Shown one piece after another: positions 2,688-11,600 of a DNA stretch of 12,662 nt; the stretch's first letter is position 1, and each line of letters starts with the position of its first letter. The position numbers and the translations under genes are program-made. Below the pieces are notes generated by a model. The model was not told the DNA's origin. It worked only from the letters and a program-made list of their open reading frames with translations, and did no database searches. The DNA lies in IMG/VR virus record IMGVR_UViG_3300000290_000191; one strand, given 5' to 3'. The stretch is from a virus. Taxonomy: Duplodnaviria > Heunggongvirae > Uroviricota > Caudoviricetes.

Positions 2688-3250
2688 AAGCTGTGTGACG
2701 AAGTAACCACTCTTAACAGCATAACCAATTTTTTACGTACGTAAACTACTAAATGATATTTGTGAGAATGCCACCGAGTGTTCAAAACACCACCACAAAT
2801 ACATAAGAAAACTTCAACAAATAATCAGTTAATAATTTCCGATGTTATTTTTAGTTTGTTTAAATTAAGCTAAAGAATTATAGAGCACTTATAAATAAGT
2901 GCCATTAATATAAATTAGCTAATAGATTTATTTTTGTTCAGACAAGAGCCATGAATAGGATTAGATAGAAAAGGTTCAGATAAAAATAGAGATCTACTTC
3001 ACAAATTAAATGAGAAACTAAAACTTACATCTTGAAATAATCACATTGATTAGATGAATATTTATCGCGCAGTGACATCATTTTTTAATAATAGTTCAAA
3101 AAAANNNNNNNNNNNNNNNNNNNNNNNNNNNNNNNNNNNNNNNNNNNNNNNNNNNNNNNNNNNNNNNNNNNNNNNNNNNNNNNNNNNNNNNNNNNNNNNN
3201 NNNNNNNNNNNNNNNNNNNNNNNNNNNNNNNNNNNNNNNNATCAGTACTG

Positions 3251-4365
3251 ATGGCGATGTCTGCTCAGGCAGCTGAAATTTATAATAAAGACAGTAACAA
3301 GCTGGATCTATACGGGAAAGTTAATGCCAAGCACTACTTCTCCTCTAATGATGCAGATGATGGTGATACTACTTATGCCCGTCTTGGCTTCAAAGGTGAA
3401 ACCCAAATCAACGATCAACTGACTGGTTTCGGTCAGTGGGAATATGAATTCAAAGGCAACCGTGCTGAATCTCAAGGTTCTTCCAAAGACAAAACCCGTC
3501 TTGCATTTGCAGGCCTGAAATTTGGTGATTACGGCTCCATCGATTACGGCCGTAACTACGGTGTAGCATACGACATCGGTGCGTGGACTGACGTNNNNNN
3601 NNNNNNNNNNNNNNNNNNNNNNNNNNNNNNNNNNNNNNNNNNNNNNNNNNNNNNNNNNNNNNNNNNNNNNNNNNNNNNNNNNNNNNNNNNNNNNNNNNNN
3701 NNNNNNNNNNNNNNNNNNNNNNNNNNNNNCGCACTACTGGTGTTGCAACTTATCGTAACAACGACTTCTTTGGTCTGGTCGATGGCCTGAACTTTGCTGC
3801 TCAGTATCAGGGTAAAAATGACCGCACTGACGTAACTGAAGCCAATGGTGATGGTTTCGGTTTCTCCACTACTTATGAGTATGAAGGATTCGGCGTGGGT
3901 GCAACCTATGCTAAATCAGATCGCACTGACGGTCAGGTCGCCTATGGTAAGAGCAAATTCAATGCCTCCGGCAAAAATGCGGAAGTATGGGCTGCAGGCC
4001 TGAAATATGATGCGAACAATATCTATCTGGCTACCACATATTCTGAAACTCAGAATATGACCGTTTTTGGTAATAACCATATTGCAAACAAAGCACAAAA
4101 CTTTGAAGCAGTAGCACAATATCAGTTTGACTTCGGTCTGCGCCCATCTGTTGCTTACCTTCAGTCAAAAGGTAAAGACCTTGGTGTTCATGGTGACCGA
4201 GACTTAGTCAAGTATGTCGATGTCGGTGCTACTTACTACTTTAATAAAAACATGTCTACTTTTGTTGATTACAAAATCAACTTAATTGACGATAGTAAGT
4301 TTACCAAAACAGCTGGTATTGATACCGACGACATCGTCGCTGTAGGTCTGGTTTATCAGTTCTAA
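3251..4365 (+). CDS. nmpC: OmpC/NmpC/OmpD-family general porin (prophage-encoded); 5' end and signal peptide lie inside N-run 3105-3240, second N-run 3595-3729 inside the barrel
   Basis: Translation ...[32 protein letters not shown]...GFGQWEYEF...[30 protein letters not shown]...[30 protein letters not shown]...[21 protein letters not shown]...VAVGLVYQF with terminal Phe is a classical 16-strand porin; frame before and after the second N-run differs, so N-run length is not exact or the gene is disrupted. Confidence 0.88.
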
Positions 4366-4376
4366 TCTGACTTACG

Positions 4377-4416
4377 AAAAAGATATGTTGCGGGAGGCTT
4401 TGCCTCCGCAACATAT
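4377..4416 (-). terminator. Candidate tR'-like intrinsic terminator on minus strand downstream of Q
   Basis: About 15-bp stem ATATGTTGCGG(G)AGGC / GCCTCCGCAACATAT with one bulge and TTT loop; on the minus strand it is followed by CUUUUU (from + strand aaaaa at 4377-4381); lies about 140 bp downstream of the Q stop, as tR' does in lambda. Confidence 0.5.
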
Positions 4417-4503
4417 AAGTGGAGCCCTCAAGCCACTTCCTTTAGAAGCACTACCTTGCTTCTTACTATATAAACCTTCTGTTATATATTACCCTTTATT
4501 TTG

Positions 4504-4527
4504 GGGGCGTTTCCACGCCCCATTTTT
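4504..4527 (+). terminator. Intrinsic terminator for porin / IpeX-like transcript
   Basis: Perfect 7-bp GC-rich stem GGGGCGT(4504-4510)/ACGCCCC(4515-4521), 4-nt loop, followed by TTTTT (4523-4527). Confidence 0.6.
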
Positions 4528-4553
4528 AATAACTTTTAGTAAACAATTGCATA

Positions 4554-4937
4554 TCAATTAGAATTATTAGCAACGATATCCATATCTAACCGGATATCTA
4601 ATGCCATTAACATCCCTTCAATTATGCCCTCAGCCTTCTGTAACCTTTTCCCGATATAACCATCCGAGCAGCAATGCTTACTTGCCAGTGACATGAATGT
4701 CATACCACATACATAATAATCTACTAATAAATCGTGTAAATCGCTGTTGTTCTTTTTCAGACGGGCCATGCACCCGCAAATGATCATCGCGTCATCGTCA
4801 CAACAATGCGGGCGAGATTTTACTTTTGAAGGAATTAATCCCTTAAAACCGGCGGCAATGGACGACCAGGCCACATCTTCATGATTATTAGCCGCCCACG
4901 CTCCCCAACGTTCAAGAACCATCTGAATATCACGCAT
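4554..4937 (-). CDS. Q: Q late-gene antiterminator (QuuD/phage-21/82-type), 127 aa
   Basis: Translation [34 protein letters not shown]...[32 protein letters not shown]... with Cys-rich zinc-binding motif matches lambdoid Q family; GGAG RBS 7 nt upstream of ATG at 4937 (track start 4952 is an upstream TTG). Confidence 0.9.
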
Positions 4938-4954
4938 TAACTTTCTCCACAAAA

Positions 4955-5950
4955 TCAGGCCAGCACACCAATCGCCAGTGCGCGATCGATAAAACGAAAT
5001 ATCAGCTCCAGCTGGGAGCCATACTTCTCTTCAAATGCCACGGTATCCGCATGCAGTTCGTCGTGGTGTTTTCTGCACAAAGGCAGCACAAAAAGGTCAT
5101 GCGCTTTTGTACCCATTCCACCCTGACCATGGCCTATCAGATGATGCGGATCATCAGCTGGCTTTCCACAACATGCACACGGCTGCGTCTTAACCCAGCG
5201 CGTGTACTGTTCATTAACCCAGCGACGACGTTTGGGGCGTAACATAAAAGACTCCGGCGACTCCGGATCCACTTTCAGCGCCAGCACCTTTTTCGCTTTA
5301 TCCTGGATAATGCTGGTGGCAGGAACCGAAGGCACAAGGTCACTTTCCCGGGTGACAGACGGCAAAACAGACTTCGGTAATCTCAGTGCCTTACGGGCTG
5401 CGCTTTCCGGTAAGGCATCCGCCAGGTCATTACGAACCAGCCACCAGCACAGTTCCGGCATTGTCACGGCATGGTTATCATTAAAATCGAGATCCCGACG
5501 GACTACAGACAACACCCAACGGGCACAGTTATCCGTTGCCATTGATTCCAGCCGCTCCGTGAACTGATCACGTAACTGATTATCGCAGTGCCAGCACAGA
5601 CGGATTGCGCCCGGCGCGTGTCGCATTGTGGTCATGTTCTCGCTGTGCCAGTCGGAATGAGGCCACTGGCAGCCTTTTTCACGAAGTAACCAGCTTTCAA
5701 GACATTCCACCCCACCAGCACGACGAATCACTGCCTCATTACGGAACACGGCCCGAACGGCAGGATCATCCGCCAGCGGTTGTGATGCCGCGGGAACGGC
5801 ACCACTGGCGAAAGATGAATAATGCTCCGGCTCAGGCTCCAGCAGTACACGCCCCTGCATAAACAGGGGCATCAGCTCTGAACCGGGCCTGAACAATACG
5901 ATCCCCATACGCGGGGCAATTTCAGGGGTCAATAGTGCTCTCACGGTCAC
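4955..5950 (-). CDS. DUF968-family phage protein (YdfU-like) with C-terminal HNH-like Cys/His motif
   Basis: C-terminus ...[45 protein letters not shown] has Cys and His spacing typical of HNH/DUF968 proteins found between nin genes and Q; start ambiguous (GTG at 5950 overlapping upstream stop, or internal ATG at 5911). Confidence 0.75.
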
Positions 5951-5951
5951 C

Positions 5952-6827
5952 TCAATGAACGGTATCGAGCAGCTTTAACAGCTCAGGGAATCGGGATTCG
6001 AAGAAATGCGGCTGCGTCTCGCGCGGATTTGCGGGACTGGTGATGTTCTTGCCGAACATGCAGCCTTTCGCTGTCAGCGACCAGAATTTTTTGATGTTGT
6101 TAATCGCGGTACGGCTGTATCGTTCGCGCTGCTCGACGATCCCCAGCTTCACCATCTGGTGATATGCCTGATTAGCTGTCAGGCGGATACCATACTGCTT
6201 CAGCAGTGCACTCAGTGACAGCGTGGGACGGCTTGAGCCATCAGGCGCGTCAGCAGGAGCATCAATGGCATAGCGCGGTGCCAGATTCGGTAAGCCAACA
6301 GCCTCCTGGAGTTTCTGACAGGCACCAAGCACTGAAGAGTTAGACAGGTTTAACTCCCGGCGCATAAAGTCCAGCAGAATCACGCCAGCCTGCATCTTGT
6401 CAGCAGCCTGCCCGGATAATTTTTCCGATGCGCTGGTTACCATATCGAAAGTACGGATCACCTTCAGATGGAATGACGGGCTGATCCACATTGCATAGGC
6501 ATACACCAGTTCTTTGCAGACATACGTCCCCTGGTTATTTCCGCCACGAATAACGTTAACTGGCTCTATATTGACCGAGTTGCAAATCTGCAACTCGCTT
6601 ATTAAACGTTCAGTTTGCTCANNNNNNNNNNNNNNNNNNNNNNNNNNNNNNNNNNNNNNNNNNNNNNNNNNNNNNNNNNNNNNNNNNNNNNNNNNNNNNN
6701 NNNNNNNNNNNNNNGCAGGCTTATGCTTATCCAGAGAACCGGCAGCCCTGTGCAGATCGTTCAGGCTGTAACGCCCATAAGCATCACGACGAACTTCAAT
6801 ACCATCAATGACCATCAGATTATTCAT
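5952..6827 (-). CDS. KilA-N domain protein (Roi / antirepressor-like DNA-binding protein), interrupted by N-run 6622-6714
   Basis: N-terminus [30 protein letters not shown] ... [28 protein letters not shown] resembles KilA-N domain; C-terminal half resembles phage antirepressor C domains; GAGGAG RBS 9 nt upstream of ATG 6827. Confidence 0.78.
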
Positions 6828-6846
6828 ACTTCGTTTCTCCTCTTGA

Positions 6847-7245
6847 TCAGGCGGCTGCACCCGCCGTTTTCTCGTACTTACTGATAGTGATCTCGACCTT
6901 CCCTTCCGGGATAACCGGTCCCCACTCCACCAGCATTCTTTTCACCTGGCTGTCGTCTTCCCACACACCCGCGTGGGTCAGGGCGTCAAACAGCGCCTTG
7001 TTATAGTTGTCCAGATCGCGGATCCGGTTATCCGGAGGAAACAACACGATCTCCACTGAAGCAGGTGCCGACGTTGGTTTCGGCATCCCCGCGCCAATCT
7101 GGCGGGCAATGGTTTCAATTGATGGCCAGCACACACCTTCGTCATTACTGAAATCAGCCAGGCGGGCCATAATTGCCACGCTGGATAATTTCATGCCTGA
7201 TGCAGCGCAACCATCCCATACATAGCCGGTTAATTTAGTGCTCAT
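6847..7245 (-). CDS. rusA: RusA-like Holliday-junction resolvase core with atypical N-terminus resembling an HTH_36-type DNA-binding segment (possible in-frame fusion)
   Basis: Residues about 60-132 (SVEIVLFPPDNRIRDLDNYNKALFDALTHAGVWEDDSQV...) carry the RusA acidic catalytic motifs (D-x-D, DD); residues 1-52 (MKLSSVAIMARLADFSNDEGVCWPSIETIARQIG) resemble the N-terminal HTH of phage replication initiators, not RusA; AGAGG RBS present. Confidence 0.7.
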   Translation of the reverse strand: MSTKLTGYVWDGCAASGMKLSSVAIMARLADFSNDEGVCWPSIETIARQIGAGMPKPTSAPASVEIVLFPPDNRIRDLDNYNKALFDALTHAGVWEDDSQVKRMLVEWGPVIPEGKVEITISKYEKTAGAAA

Positions 7246-7593
7246 GACCGACCTCTATTTCCCTGAATTTACGACGAAACTGTTCGAGCGGGCTGAAGCA
7301 CTCATGCTCATAGCCTTCGCGGAGGTAGATAACACGTTGTGTTTCCGGTTCCCAACGAATGACTCTGACGGGCACTCCGTAGTGATCTTTGAACCAGCGG
7401 TTAACTTGTCGCAAAGGACTGTCTCCTTCTGCCGGTTGAAATCACCCACAGCCCACTCAGCAAAGCTGTGGGTTACAATTTCCCTGTCACCTGGTACATT
7501 CACTGCATAGCAATATTCCACCTTCGCTTTTCCACCCGGTACAGGAAGCGCAATCAGTTGCGAGCGACGGTAGTGTGTTGTTAAACTGTTCAT
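7235..7593 (-). pseudogene. Frameshifted hypothetical nin-region gene (about 119 codons if the frame is restored)
   Basis: ORF 7255-7593 gives protein-like N-terminus [52 protein letters not shown] then junk; a second frame from about 7432 gives protein-like [67 protein letters not shown] ending at 7235 with an 11-nt overlap onto the rusA-like start; GGAGAAA RBS before ATG 7593. Confidence 0.45.
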
Positions 7594-8141
7594 GCGTTAG
7601 TTTCTCCACAGTCACGACACGCCACGGCGCCCGGAGCTGCACACTCGCGGGCGTCATTACTTTCTGAAATGCAAAAGATTTTGTAGACCAGTGCTGCATG
7701 CTCCTGCAGCTTCGAAATTGAGAGATACAGCTCGTCGTTAATTGCTGTCTTCTCATGCGGTTCCACTACACCGTCTTCGATTGCTGAACGAATCTGTTTT
7801 GAATAACTGCCGATCTGTTCAATGACTTCCAGCAGACGCTGGTTAATATCGGCGTTGTCCACATCCTCGACGTCAGGAAGAGACACAAATACGCCATTTG
7901 CAGACTGCGCCACAGCATCAGCAATGAAGTGAGTGCCACCAGCACGCTGTAAAACCATTGCCCATCCCAGCGGGAAAATCTGATCGCCATCGGCACGAAG
8001 GCGGTTAAATAATGCGTTCTCTGTTACGTCCAGCCAGTCAGCAGCTTCAGCGTAACCCCCCGGCAACGCTGCGATAGTTTTTCTGACAGCTTTCACGTAC
8101 CACTCAGGCTGTTTTTCTATTTTCCAGTGATGCTTACCCAC
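7590..8141 (-). CDS. CII-like regulator with central HTH (YdaT/Phage_CP76-type)
   Basis: HTH-like segment [22 protein letters not shown] comparable to lambda CII; positioned directly downstream of the cro-like gene; best start is GTG at 8141 preceded by GAGGAG with 6-nt spacing (track start ATG 8252 has no RBS and overlaps cro); ATGA overlap with next gene at 7590-7593. Confidence 0.6.
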
Positions 8142-8169
8142 GGTTAACTCCTCGTTTCTGTGGTTACGT

Positions 8170-8433
8170 TTACGCAGCTGAACCGCTAACTTTTGAATAG
8201 CACTCAGGTAATCCATCATTTGGATTGGGGTAAATATCAGGACGCAGTTCATGAGGGGTCACGGACCAGTTTCCCAACTCACAAAGTTGTAAAACCCGTT
8301 CTGACGGGACTTGATTGTTAATTACCCAATTAGCGACGGATTGAGTGGACTTAAAACCAAAGTGACGGGCTACTTCAGATAAAGATTTTCCCGCAGCTTT
8401 TACTGCTTTCTCTGTGTAGTTTTGAGATGACAT
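8170..8433 (-). CDS. Cro-like small HTH regulator (YdaS-type)
   Basis: 87-aa product with HTH-like GKSLSEVARHFGFKSTQSVANWVINNQ; divergent from the cI-like repressor across an operator-rich spacer; AGGAGA RBS 5 nt upstream of ATG 8433. Confidence 0.7.
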   Translation of the reverse strand: MSSQNYTEKAVKAAGKSLSEVARHFGFKSTQSVANWVINNQVPSERVLQLCELGNWSVTPHELRPDIYPNPNDGLPECYSKVSGSAA

Positions 8434-8441
8434 ACCTTTCT

Positions 8442-8502
8442 CCTCTGAAATTCAGAGGGATGATGCTACTTAAAATAGCAGAATGCAACTACTTAAAATA
8501 GA
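8442..8502. promoter_or_regulatory. OR-like divergent promoter/operator region between cro-like and cI-like genes
   Basis: Perfect 17-bp palindrome CCTCTGAA-A-TTCAGAGG (8442-8458) overlapping the cro RBS, plus two related near-palindromes GCTACTTAAAATAGC (8465-8479) and ACTACTTAAAATAGA (8488-8502) spaced 23 bp apart. Confidence 0.5.
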
Positions 8503-9244
8503 AATGACTAGCGTATGTGATGCGAGTAACCTTCTACCTATGGTAGAAGAACAGAAGTATCCAGATTTCGCCAAGAGACTAAACGAGCTAATGACAAACA
8601 AGGGAATTTCTGTCACCCAACTCAAAAGTCTTGTGGGCGTTACATATGAAATGGCGCGGCGATACACAATCGGCGCTGCGAAGCCTCGTGCCTCTGTCAT
8701 GAATAAACTTGCATTGGCTCTGGGGGTATCAGCTTCATATTTAGAATATGGTGTTGGCGAGAGAGAAGGATGTAAGGAAATGGCAAGCATCCCCAATCCA
8801 ACAAAACCCGATGTATACAGGATAGAAGTTTTGGATCTTAGCGTTAGCGCAGGACCTGGAACCTATATGCTTTCAGACTATGTTGATGTGCTCTACGCCA
8901 TTGAGTTCACAACAGAGCATGCCCGTTCTCTTTTCGGTAATCGTTCTCAAGATGATATTAAAGTTATGACTGTAAATGGCGACAGCATGTCCCCTACTCT
9001 AGTTTCCGGAGATCGACTGTTTGTCGACATTTCTGTTCGCAACTTCCAAACTGATGGTGTTTACTCTTTCGTTTATGGTAAGACGTTCCACGTTAAACGT
9101 CTACAAATGCAAGGCAACAAACTCGCCGTTCTTTCGGATAATCCAGCCTATGAGAAATGGTACATTGATGAGAAGTCCCAAGATCAACTTTATGTTATGG
9201 GCAAAGCATTGATACACGAATCAATTAAATACAACCGGCTTTAG
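8483..9244 (+). CDS. cI: CI-like prophage repressor: N-terminal HTH and C-terminal S24 (LexA-like) autopeptidase domain
   Basis: HTH-like LNELMTNKGISVTQLKSLVGVTYEMARRY; Ala-Gly candidate cleavage site in SVSAGPG; Ser nucleophile motif GDSMSP and Lys in HVKRL; start uncertain (8483, 8504 or 8540; none has a clear SD, consistent with a leaderless PRM-type transcript). Confidence 0.9.
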   Translation: MQLLKIEMTSVCDASNLLPMVEEQKYPDFAKRLNELMTNKGISVTQLKSLVGVTYEMARRYTIGAAKPRASVMNKLALALGVSASYLEYGVGEREGCKEMASIPNPTKPDVYRIEVLDLSVSAGPGTYMLSDYVDVLYAIEFTTEHARSLFGNRSQDDIKVMTVNGDSMSPTLVSGDRLFVDISVRNFQTDGVYSFVYGKTFHVKRLQMQGNKLAVLSDNPAYEKWYIDEKSQDQLYVMGKALIHESIKYNRL

Positions 9245-9414
9245 TTCTTCGTTTAGACTATAGAACTAAAGGTGAAAAAATAATATTTATCAAGCAAGTG
9301 CTATTACTAATAGTTGTTTTACTCTCTTATTTTTATTAAACATTATCATTAACAATATAAAATAATCACCCAGCGTAAATTACAATATGCTGGGGGTCGA
9401 AAGGATAGAGAAAT

Positions 9415-10491
9415 ATGACAAAATCAATTTGTTTTTTTAATCATAAAGGTGGGGTAAGTAAAACCACAACAACCTTCAATCTTGGATGGGCACTTGCGGA
9501 TGAAGGCAAGAAAGTATTGATGGTTGACCTTGATTCGCAATGTAATCTAACAGGAATGGTTCTTGGCTATGAAAAGATTGATGAGGGTTTAGATTCTTTT
9601 TATTCTAGCAGAGATAACTTAACTCTTGGACCTATTGTAGAATATTTGATTAATGGCGGACAACCTGAAGCATACCTTGAAAAAGAAACGGGAAAATTAC
9701 ACCCTACACTGCATGAAAACCTTCTGCTTCTTCCCGGACATTTAGATGTTTCGGACTTAGATTCACAGATAAGTGTTTCTCTAAAAATTGCTGCTGGTAT
9801 TCCTGCTACAAGAAATATACCAGGGAACCTGCCAAAAATATTACAGCTAATCGCCATGAAGAATAATATTGATTACATTCTTTATGATCTCAGCCCTAAT
9901 GTTGGAGGTTTAAATGAAGTAGTTCTCATGTCAAGTGACTATTTTATCGTACCTGTAGCTCCAGACTTTTTTTGCTGGCAAGCAATTCGCTCTCTCTCAA
10001 AAAATATACCTCGCTGGCACAAAGAATTAGCATTATTTAAAGAAAATAATGATGGTAACTCTTCACAATCAATTAAAAATGCACCGCAGTTTCTAGGTAT
10101 GATTCAGCAGAGATACAGGCCGCGTAAAGGAGCACCTGTAAAATCTTTCGAAAAATGGATGGCAGCTATCCGTGATGCTGTTGATTCGATCTTAGTGCCA
10201 AATCTAGAAAAAATTACCTGCATAATTCCACGAGATAAAGTGCAACATGCAATTAACAAAACAACAGTCAGTGGAGATTTATCAGCCTATGATCTTGCGC
10301 ATATTTCCGATTTCAACTCATTAATCGCAATAAGCCAACAACTAGCGACACCTGTTTTCTCCATCAGTGATCAGCAAATTCGCGATTCAGGGCAATTTGG
10401 GCATGCCTTAAATACAATGAAATCAAGCAGAGACGCCTTTAACGAACAATTTAAAGGGCTGGCTCAACGAGTTCTAGAACTTACAAAGTAA
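9415..10491 (+). CDS. Orphan ParA/MinD-family deviant Walker-A ATPase (358 aa) in the cI-downstream moron slot
   Basis: Deviant Walker A KGGVSKTT at residues 11-18, A-prime motif MVDLDSQCN, Walker B DYILYDLSP, and C-terminal region typical of ParA; no ParB-like gene or obvious centromere repeats adjacent; AT-rich relative to the phage backbone. Confidence 0.85.
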   Translation: MTKSICFFNHKGGVSKTTTTFNLGWALADEGKKVLMVDLDSQCNLTGMVLGYEKIDEGLDSFYSSRDNLTLGPIVEYLINGGQPEAYLEKETGKLHPTLHENLLLLPGHLDVSDLDSQISVSLKIAAGIPATRNIPGNLPKILQLIAMKNNIDYILYDLSPNVGGLNEVVLMSSDYFIVPVAPDFFCWQAIRSLSKNIPRWHKELALFKENNDGNSSQSIKNAPQFLGMIQQRYRPRKGAPVKSFEKWMAAIRDAVDSILVPNLEKITCIIPRDKVQHAINKTTVSGDLSAYDLAHISDFNSLIAISQQLATPVFSISDQQIRDSGQFGHALNTMKSSRDAFNEQFKGLAQRVLELTK

Positions 10492-10498
10492 TGCATGT

Positions 10499-10530
10499 GC
10501 CCGGCCGCATAACCGGGCTTTACTCTTCTT
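10499..10530 (+). terminator. Candidate intrinsic terminator after the ParA-like gene
   Basis: GCCCGG(10499-10504)/CCGGGC(10513-10518) stem with 8-nt loop followed by T-rich tract tttactcttctttc. Confidence 0.45.
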
Positions 10531-10686
10531 TCTCCCTGATTAATCTCATAAAAAACTCCCTCCTCATAATTCACTATGCTCAATACCTACTCCAACTTCG
10601 TGCGATATTTTCAGTTTACAGCATAGTAAATCAGCAAAAACATTTAACTTTCAATTAATTATAGAAAAATCATAGACAACAACAAA

Positions 10687-10736
10687 TATCTACTTTTTGT
10701 TGTTGATTTTTGCTACTTTAAGTAGCAACATAATGT
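10687..10736 (+). promoter_or_regulatory. OL/PL-like operator-promoter candidate
   Basis: Perfect 15-bp palindrome GCTACTT-T-AAGTAGC (10712-10726), one mismatch from the OR site at 8465-8479, plus half-site TCTACTT (10689-10695) and a 10-bp inverted repeat CAACAACAAA/TTTGTTGTTG; -10-like CATAAT at 10729-10734; lies 2.2 kb from OR, bracketing cI and the ParA-like gene. Confidence 0.4.
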
Positions 10737-10817
10737 AAGCTATCACGGACAGGCAGGACGCCCACGAAGTAGCCGCCGGTGGCGTATGAATGACCGGATG
10801 ATTCGTTAGCAACAAAA

Positions 10818-10851
10818 AAGCGCCCTACAGGACGCTTAGCTCTTTAACAAT
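10818..10851 (+). promoter_or_regulatory. boxA-like antitermination element preceded by a short hairpin
   Basis: GCTCTTTAACAAT at 10839-10851 matches the rrn/nut boxA core GCTCTTTAACAA exactly; hairpin AAGCG/CGCTT (10818-10837) immediately upstream; 31 nt before ORF 10882. Confidence 0.4.
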
Positions 10852-10881
10852 CTTAGTATCCCCGTAACAAAAGAGGGTTCT

Positions 10882-11175
10882 ATGGTCATATTCTGTGCTT
10901 ACGTTCATCCTAATGGATTTTTTATCAGCACCAACCAACAAGACGAATTCTGGATTCTACTTAGTAAGCAGGTCGGATGGGGACGATTCTGTCTAATCCG
11001 ACCAGAATCAGAATTTACAGAGAATGGAGGGCTTTTTGAATTACGTGAAATACGTCCGGCAGATGGTCAAGCCCCTGACCAAGTAATCGAATCGTCAGCT
11101 GTTTTATGGCGTCGGCAGGAAGCGTTCGAAGCTGAGAGAGTAATTTCTTCTTATCTTCAGTCGTGGCAGAAGTAG
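10882..11175 (+). CDS. Hypothetical 97-aa protein, first ORF downstream of the PL-like/boxA region (not N-like in sequence)
   Basis: ORF with AGAGGG RBS 4 nt upstream; product lacks an arginine-rich motif; overlaps an antisense ORF (11015-11233), so the coding strand is unresolved. Confidence 0.38.
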   Translation: MVIFCAYVHPNGFFISTNQQDEFWILLSKQVGWGRFCLIRPESEFTENGGLFELREIRPADGQAPDQVIESSAVLWRRQEAFEAERVISSYLQSWQK

Positions 11176-11276
11176 AACTATTGATGATACGTTCAAGTTC
11201 ACAGAGAGTCTCATCATGCAATCTTATTGTCATAATCCCAAGAATAGCTTTAAGACCTCCATCATCACGAATGAAA

Positions 11277-11600
11277 TCAATTNNNNNNNNNNNNNNNNNN
11301 NNNNNNNNNNNNNNNNNNNNNNNNNNNNNNNNNNNNNNNNNNNNNNNNNNNNNNNNNNNNNNNNNNNNNNNNNNNNNNNNNNNNTTCAGGAATATTTATA
11401 TTTATGCCATCCAAGTAATAATCAAGAGCATTCTTAATCAAGCCATGTTCTTCGAGATAAATTAAGTTCGAAATTAGGACATTATCATCTCCAAATGCGT
11501 CACGAACAGACTGCAACGCATCATCAGAAATTTCATAAGGATGAGCATCATACAGTATTTGTAACAACTGCCTTTGTGCACTTCTATCAAATTTGTCCAT
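11277..11600 (-). CDS. Small hypothetical protein with winged-helix-like N-terminal region (DUF2513-like pattern), interrupted by N-run 11283-11384
   Basis: N-terminus MDKFDRSAQRQLLQILYDAHPYEISDDALQSVRDAFGDDNVLISNLIYLEEHGLIKNALDYYL has the L-x-x-L-x-E-x-G-L-I pattern of small wHTH proteins; GGTGA RBS 9 nt upstream of ATG 11600; the 3' end depends on the true gap length and may instead continue in the frame of ORF 11015-11233. Confidence 0.45.
   Translation of the reverse strand: MDKFDRSAQRQLLQILYDAHPYEISDDALQSVRDAFGDDNVLISNLIYLEEHGLIKNALDYYLDGININIPEXXXXXXXXXXXXXXXXXXXXXXXXXXXXXXXXXXN

Follow-up and report, generated by a model that had tools for sequence, protein, structure and literature searches.

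Gene content of the window

The window, by which we mean the whole 12,662-nt stretch of DNA that was analysed, comprises the early-right and lysis region of a lambdoid prophage of E. coli. Read along the minus strand, a Cro-like gene is followed by a YmfL/CII(CP76)-like gene, the DUF4222/YmfM frames, the chimeric open reading frame (ORF) under study, a KilA-N gene, a DUF968 gene and the antiterminator gene Q, and then by a porin gene, holin, lysozyme, Rz and bor, and the plus strand carries a CI-like S24 repressor and a ParA-like gene. The Cro-like gene (8170–8433, minus strand), which encodes a YdaS-type helix-turn-helix (HTH), opens the rightward early operon to which the chimera belongs, and the CI-like repressor gene (8483–9244, plus strand), with an HTH and an S24 autopeptidase domain, is divergently transcribed. 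The YmfL/CII(CP76)-like early gene lies at 7590–8252 (minus strand), and its annotated homologues are 183 aa long with a start further downstream. Directly upstream of the chimera is a 59-aa DUF4222 gene (7235–7414, minus strand; Pfam E 8.6e-19, and the one called by PGAP), which overlaps the start of the chimera by 11 nt, exactly as it does with the intact replication gene O. An alternative to DUF4222 is a 112-aa ORF in the YmfM frame (7255–7593, minus strand), annotated in K-12 as 'cell division inhibitor YmfM'; the two overlap in different frames, and annotation pipelines pick one or the other.

The chimeric ORF itself spans 6847–7245 on the minus strand, begins with ATG and encodes 132 aa, which were assigned by Pfam, PHROGs and alignment to residues 1–54 of an O-type initiator followed by residues 52–129 of RusA. 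The KilA-N domain gene lies directly downstream (5952–6860, minus strand; 265 aa in relatives), followed by the DUF968/HNH-like gene (4955–5950, minus strand) and Q (4554–4952, minus strand), the latter two assigned by domain match.

Further features of the window lie outside this operon. A gene for a 358-aa ParA/AAA_31-type ATPase (9415–10491, plus strand) adjoins the CI-like repressor gene, on the flank that does not face cro. The relative Z247 has it too, whereas several related prophages lack it, and it is perhaps a moron or else cargo with a defence or partition-like role. An OmpC/NmpC-like porin gene (3251–4365, plus strand) is placed between Q and the holin gene, like nmpC of DLP12; it is intact (360 aa) in relatives and broken in the window only by runs of N. 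Six such runs are present (1150–1198, 2023–2211, 3105–3240, 3595–3729, 6622–6714 and 11283–11384), each about 80 nt longer than the matching stretch in near-identical relatives, so that window coordinates and ORF lengths that cross them are inflated. In the KilA-N gene, for example, the 93 N at 6622–6714 stand for 15 nt, and the ORF appears as 302 aa instead of 265.

Domain make-up of the chimeric ORF

The Pfam RusA family (PF05866) matched chimera residues 46–121 with an E value of 1.7e-12, covering only positions 36–123 of the 124-position profile, and at 48.5 bits against a cut-off of 22.8 the family threshold was passed. HTH_36 (PF13730) matched residues 23–51 (E 1.2e-5; 25.4 bits against a cut-off of 25), covering only profile positions 8–36 of 55. 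Similarly, in PHROGs, residues 1–54/55 matched 'replication initiation O-like/primosomal protein' and residues 46–131 matched 'RusA-like Holliday junction resolvase'. The Pfam and PHROG matches stop exactly at the junction, and the intact neighbouring genes match over their full length. The exact boundary, with O residues 1–54 followed by residues 52–129 of a 129-aa RusA, means that the start codon comes from O and the stop codon from rusA. The original prediction had likened the first 52 or so residues to the HTH of a phage replication initiator and placed the RusA catalytic acidic motifs in the last 75 or so, and separate alignment of the two halves bore out both assignments, to an O-like (HTH_36) protein and to RusA respectively.

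The O-derived part shows 100% identity to the start of the 313-aa O gene in Z247, L020 and L023. It comprises helices 1–2 of a winged HTH and stops immediately short of the predicted recognition helix, so that the DNA-binding domain of an O-like initiator is incomplete (HTH_36 positions 8–36 of 55, as against 8–55 in intact O), and both the C-terminal domain and the iteron array within the gene are missing from the chimera.

The C-terminal 78 residues are 99–100% identical to the 129-aa prophage RusA. In E. coli RusA, Asp70, Asp72, Lys76 and Asp90/91 are catalytic and Arg69 binds DNA (PMC1636454); these residues (R69, D70, D72, K76 and D90/D91) align with R76, D77, D79, K83 and D97/D98 of the chimera, in which every member of the set is kept. 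The RusA fold, on the other hand, is not complete. The monomer in crystals has a four-stranded mixed sheet flanked by two helices, with residues 13–16 contacting DNA, residues 15–28 forming a flexible loop and helix alpha1 moving at the dimer (PMC1636454). The fragment in the chimera aligns to residues 48–116 of E. coli RusA, keeping the Arg-rich loop, the catalytic Asp and Lys residues, helix alpha2 and the last three beta-strands, and the equivalents of residues 1–47 are gone, and with them beta1, the DNA-contacting turn and loop, and alpha1, that is, one strand and one helix of the fold. Without beta1 and alpha1, folding and dimerisation of the RusA fragment are unlikely. AlphaFold2 gave a mean pLDDT of 39 for the chimera (62-sequence alignment) and of 47 for the intact 129-aa RusA used as a control (48 homologues), the alignments being too shallow in both cases.

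Breakpoints and intact relatives

Megablast of window positions 6600–7600 against 5,426 complete E. coli genomes returned hundreds that were 100% identical from 7084 rightwards; according to their annotation, the matching stretch begins a gene for a 'helix-turn-helix domain-containing protein', which follows DUF4222 and ymfL. In Z247 (L002), the order is ymfL, DUF4222, the HTH protein (313 aa), a PerC family protein (164 aa), a LexA family protein (108 aa), RusA (129 aa), KilA-N, DUF968 and the antiterminator. The intact order O-PerC-LexA_DNA_bind-RusA-KilA-N-DUF968-Q recurs in L020, L023 and phage SfIV, in whose record rusA is unannotated. L020 (CP178715.1) and L023 (CP145620.1), which came from a search with the DUF3950 protein (10,401 blocks), are the closest comparison: both are 100% identical to the window over 6715–7085 and 7084–9168, both carry the whole O-PerC-LexA_DNA_bind-RusA block, and both share the late region of the window, with the porin gene, Q, the lysis genes and lambda-like packaging genes.

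When the window was aligned with Z247, L020 and L023, it was collinear with all three except for one gap of 1,746 bp (582 codons), so that both halves of the ORF are collinear with separate complete genes in intact relatives and are joined at one junction. The BLAST coordinates on the two sides overlap by 2 nt, TG on the coding strand and CA at window 7084–7085, a microhomology that belongs to both parents. To its right, 7086–7245 (minus strand) holds the first 53 codons of O and base 1 of codon 54, and to its left, 6847–7083 (minus strand) holds rusA codons 52–129 and the stop codon. On the coding strand, the parental sequences ...GGGGATG|AGTACC in O and ...CGTCTG|CCGAAA in rusA yield ...GGGGATGCCGAAA in the chimera, and on the plus strand the junction reads ...GGTTTCGGCA|TCCCCGCG... 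in the alignment with Z247. The breakpoints that were to be sought in intact relatives could thus be mapped cleanly, with flanks of 100% identity and an overlap of 2 nt, in agreement with the in-frame deletion from the 5' end of a replication gene to mid-rusA that had originally been proposed. The deletion is recent relative to L020 and L023.

With a probability of roughly 0.93, we read the ORF as a pseudogene-like chimera produced by one 1,746-bp illegitimate deletion that fused the start of O to the back half of rusA. The proposed course of events would be a single deletion at a 2-nt microhomology in the early-right operon of an SfIV/e14-type lambdoid prophage, joining O codon 54 in frame to rusA codon 52. 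It would have removed the recognition helix and wing, the iteron-bearing linker (the presumed origin) and the C-terminal domain of O, the PerC/YfdN-like gene, the gene for the LexA DNA-binding domain and 51 codons of rusA, and would have left the prophage replication-dead. Because the translation start of O is kept within the rightward early operon, translation of the chimera would be expected to require inactivation of the CI-like repressor and derepression of the early operon. Comprising half an HTH and a RusA fragment that is short of one of four strands and one of two helices, the product is very probably an inert by-product.

Functions removed from the prophage

The intact 313-aa O protein matched PHROG 391, 'replication initiation O-like', over its full length (E 5.5e-135), and its HTH_36 domain, at residues 23–70, is complete (profile positions 8–55). 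Within its gene lies an iteron array with a 15-nt period (L002 7716–7864), consisting of TGACGGGTCAGATTT and variants, and the array falls within the deleted segment. In lambda, the origin iterons sit inside the O gene, and by analogy the array is presumed to be the origin of this phage type. What was lost from O is residues 55–313, including the predicted recognition helix and wing, the iteron-bearing linker and the C-terminal domain; the PerC/YfdN-like gene, a gene encoding only a LexA_DNA_bind domain, and RusA residues 1–51 were lost as well.

Between the CII-like gene (7590–8252) and Q (4554–4952), no O, P or DnaC-type gene was found, the interval holding only DUF4222/YmfM, the chimera, KilA-N and DUF968, in line with what had been remarked from the sequence at the outset. 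Judging from the gene order in Z247, L020, L023 and SfIV, this type of phage has no P/DnaC-like loader gene even when intact, and O with its internal presumed origin is for this reason taken to be the sole phage replication function. Since the single initiator was lost and the presumed origin lies within the lost DNA, the prophage is probably unable to start its own replication. The loss of origin and initiator is also likely to be the relevant biological effect of the deletion.

Two parts of the original prediction need to be narrowed. It had the deletion marking the loss of replication and nin genes: O was indeed lost, whereas the place of classical nin genes is taken by the PerC/YfdN-like gene and the gene for the LexA DNA-binding domain. 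It also spoke of a replication-defective cryptic prophage, of which the replication defect probably stands, with initiator and presumed origin deleted, whereas wider decay depends on the carrier, the packaging genes of L004 looking intact and those of L003 having been lost. L003 and L004 (15676–20399 in each) both carry the exact chimera and differ downstream of bor. In L004, DUF3950, Nu1, GpA, gpW and portal genes lie next to bor, while in L003 bor is followed straight away by lom and tail-fibre genes, the mark of a second, larger deletion in the same prophage lineage, and this loss of packaging genes is further decay. In both, the two carriers whose flanks were read, the prophage adjoins a fimbrial gene and a gene for a GerE-type response regulator, which corresponds to the DLP12 (fimZ-side/argU-side) site.

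Distribution and alternative explanations

Intact O is common. It is 98–99% identical in the isolated phages SfIV, SfII, PhiR29_1, Kati and others, and is present at a coverage of at least 80% in 1,580 of the 5,426 complete E. coli genomes. The fusion, by comparison, was found at a coverage of at least 80% in none of 50,697 phage records, where the halves occur as separate genes, so that the architecture is missing from viable phage genomes. The exact junction of the window was likewise found in 0 of the 5,426 complete E. coli genomes, whereas three further assemblies, each from a separate project, have both the exact junction and the protein (GCA_900449135.1, GCA_012802635.1 and SRR1106282). 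The exact allele is rare. These carriers are 100% identical to the window over 3730–11282, apart from the runs of N.

It is improbable, though the best of the alternatives, that the deletion product has since acquired a role, for instance by acting as a dominant-negative subunit of RusA, or by interfering, through its O fragment, with related phages that superinfect. The frame is open in at least four assemblies, and many independent truncations of the O gene keep an N-terminal fragment. However, since the carriers are 100% identical over 3730–11282, the open frame tells nothing about selection; the 54 residues of O amount to less than a whole DNA-binding domain, the operon is expected to be repressed in lysogens, and the allele is rare (0/5,426 complete genomes). 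Residual or altered RusA activity is conceivable, with all catalytic residues kept and the frame undisrupted in several strains.

Even less probable is that the ORF encodes a genuine, so far undescribed RusA variant with an HTH module at its N-terminus, which the original prediction had offered as its alternative. An open frame, the full set of catalytic residues and the existence of other HTH_36 plus RusA proteins could be taken to favour it, as could the name under which NCBI lists the protein, 'RusA family crossover junction endodeoxyribonuclease'. Against this, in relatives with 100% identical flanks the two halves are the 5' part of one gene and the 3' part of another, 1.7 kb apart, the HTH is cut ahead of its recognition helix, and the RusA part is short of a strand and a helix. 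Neither is the architecture conserved, as the junctions of the other fusions differ (O54, O60 and O78; RusA52, 69, 90 and 108). Full-length homologues with the same N-terminus, had they been widespread in intact phages, would have spoken for such a variant, and none was present at a coverage of at least 80% among the 50,697 phage records. An assembly or scaffolding artefact, to which the six runs of N and the disagreement of their lengths with related genomes might point, is least probable of all, as the junction lies in unbroken sequence 370 bp from the nearest run and recurs, with an identical protein, in GCA_900449135.1, GCA_012802635.1 and SRR1106282.

The feature, on the deletion reading that we prefer, is an ordinary scar of a dead prophage, a new allele of a known kind rather than a new enzyme. 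This has a bearing on annotation, where the chimera and the related 138-aa proteins carry the same public name of a RusA family endodeoxyribonuclease: such chimeras are scars left by deletions and a sign of replication-dead prophages, and it would be wrong to count them among the resolvases or to treat them as a new domain architecture.

A recurrent breakpoint in the O gene

One 4-nt site, GGGT^AAC at codons 78/79, is the breakpoint of more than 50 different rearrangements of the O gene, among them e14 ymfN and CPS-53 yfdO. The site corresponds to L002 7926–7929 (Z247), where the sequence is GGGTAACC, with the break at CGCCAGGGT^AACCGC, and it lies inside the segment deleted from the window. 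It is located midway between two GCGTCG repeats. Downstream of it, an iteron-like ATGCGTCGAA that matches part of one iteron exactly follows after 7 nt, and the iteron array after about 65 nt.

The breakpoints were mapped on a reference ('ref') that is the reverse complement of L002 and in which O spans ref 8356–9297. Six alleles (P0019, P0078, P0002, LZHX12, K-12 e14 ymfN and K-12 CPS-53 yfdO) have their O-side breakpoint at ref 8589–8594, and the others mapped are at ref 8517 (the window allele), ref 8536 (P0018) and ref 8540 (strain 300033). In a protein search with O(1–100), which by design censored breakpoints before codon 78, about 59 distinct C-terminal tails followed directly after G78. 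The partners were RusA, DUF968 (at several positions), KilA-N, PerC, the LexA-like gene, the C-terminus of O itself, methylase, terminase, capsid, tail fibres and an IS3 transposase, and many further tails were out of frame. The rearrangements at the site include deletions and a few inversions. For 30 partners, the junction was located in the DNA; it reads T|A in nearly every case, with 1–7 nt of microhomology that is always anchored on GGGT^A^A^C. To judge from the second residue of the tails that start with N, no junction lies beyond ref 8592 (the position of P0002 is ambiguous). A 1-nt deletion variant also occurs at the site.

Individual cases illustrate both sides of the break. The complete genome of MS10495 has O(1–79) fused to a 1,047-aa tail-fibre ORF, and e14 oweE/ymfN (L016 5171–5404) keeps O codons 1–78, fused to terminase A. 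CPS-53 yfdO (L018 3879–4247) keeps the opposite side of O, from codon 79 on, and therefore begins exactly where e14 oweE ends; it is joined to the yfdP-side region at a TA microhomology.

A fixed end, a variable partner and terminal microhomology together suggest a defined DNA end at the border of the origin. A nick, a stalled fork or a staggered cut could arise there and be followed by microhomology-primed joining, which would repeatedly abolish replication in prophages of this family. Two other accounts of the site found no support. One was a mosaic homology boundary between O alleles, which would suggest homology-facilitated illegitimate recombination; among 2,996 matching E. coli records, a spread sample searched at megablast sensitivity, the partial matches ending at the site were rearrangements (e14, CPS-53, O::tail fibre) and not divergent alleles. 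The other was a single-strand hairpin, the fold energies at the site being no different from those of shuffled sequence (z -0.45 and -0.76). A literature search on the hot spot and on the ymfN/yfdO breakpoints found nothing relevant.

The window junction lies 73 bp upstream of the hot spot, and its link to it is uncertain; we regard as tentative, and rather doubtful, the idea that the window deletion was an off-centre product of site-specific instability at the left border of the origin in the O gene. The hot spot may matter more than the chimera itself. A breakpoint that recurs with nucleotide precision beside the presumed origin of a replication module common in E. coli prophages also explains the endpoints of two classical K-12 cryptic-prophage pseudogenes, and, if true, it would give a natural setting in which to study the grounding of prophages and the way in which DNA ends close to an origin seed microhomology-mediated rearrangements.

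Comparison with known systems

Set against E. coli DLP12 RusA (PDB 1Q8R, 2H8C and 2H8E), the chimera corresponds to residues 48–116, with an unrelated O fragment in place of residues 1–47. Its first 54 residues are identical to those of the 313-aa initiator, which places that part with the O-like initiators (PHROG 391; SfIV gp41, the SfII 'O protein family' and, by analogy, lambda O). Unlike these, it has neither the recognition helix and wing, nor the linker encoded by the iterons, nor the C-terminal domain, and for this reason it cannot be an initiator.

Other proteins with HTH_36 and RusA parts were found by protein search, at 138, 140, 120, 117, 116 and 99 aa, along with 151/156-aa proteins that have a different type of O. 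The E. coli chimeras of 138, 120, 117 and 99 aa (P0002, P0018, P0019 and P0078) derive from the same parental genes on the same prophage backbone. Mapping to DNA showed each to be a deletion of its own (1,728, 1,782, 1,791 and 1,845 bp) with 2–6 nt of microhomology, and their junctions, O78|RusA69 (at TAACCG), O60|RusA69, O78|RusA90 (at GGGT) and O78|RusA108, differ from the O54|RusA52 junction of the window. These fusions thus appear to be independent deletions and not a conserved family. P0018, P0019 and P0078 are possibly secondary deletions of the 138-aa allele. For the window allele, e14, CPS-53, LZHX12 and MS10495, such a derivation is impossible; the window allele keeps RusA residues 52–68, which are missing from the other O::RusA chimeras, and so cannot derive from them.

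The 138-aa O78::RusA69 chimera occurs in identical form in the decayed prophages L007, L008, L009 and L010 (gene at 10001–10417 in each), which differ in their integrase, immunity region and chromosomal neighbours (proA side, rplY side and holD/rimI side). From these differing contexts it follows that the junction either spread between prophages by recombination or arose repeatedly at the 6-nt TAACCG microhomology. Further independent deletions, in which O is joined to the LexA-like gene, were seen in LZHX12 (L001 6519–6970) and in strain 300033 (L017 2718–3027), and in both complete genomes PGAP annotates these fusions as paired partial pseudogenes.

The closest precedent is ymfN of the K-12 prophage e14 (oweE'-'aaaE), whose annotation reads 'chimeric replication protein/phage terminase' and which derives from the O gene that also gave rise to the chimera. 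Both follow ymfL and ymfM/DUF4222, both are in-frame deletions that join the N-terminus of O to the C-terminal portion of the product of a phage gene further downstream, and in both the presumed origin and the rest of O have been removed. They differ in that the partner in e14 is terminase A and not RusA, that the e14 deletion is far larger, and that O is broken at codon 78 as compared with codon 54. The ORF in the window is a further case of this known type of scar.
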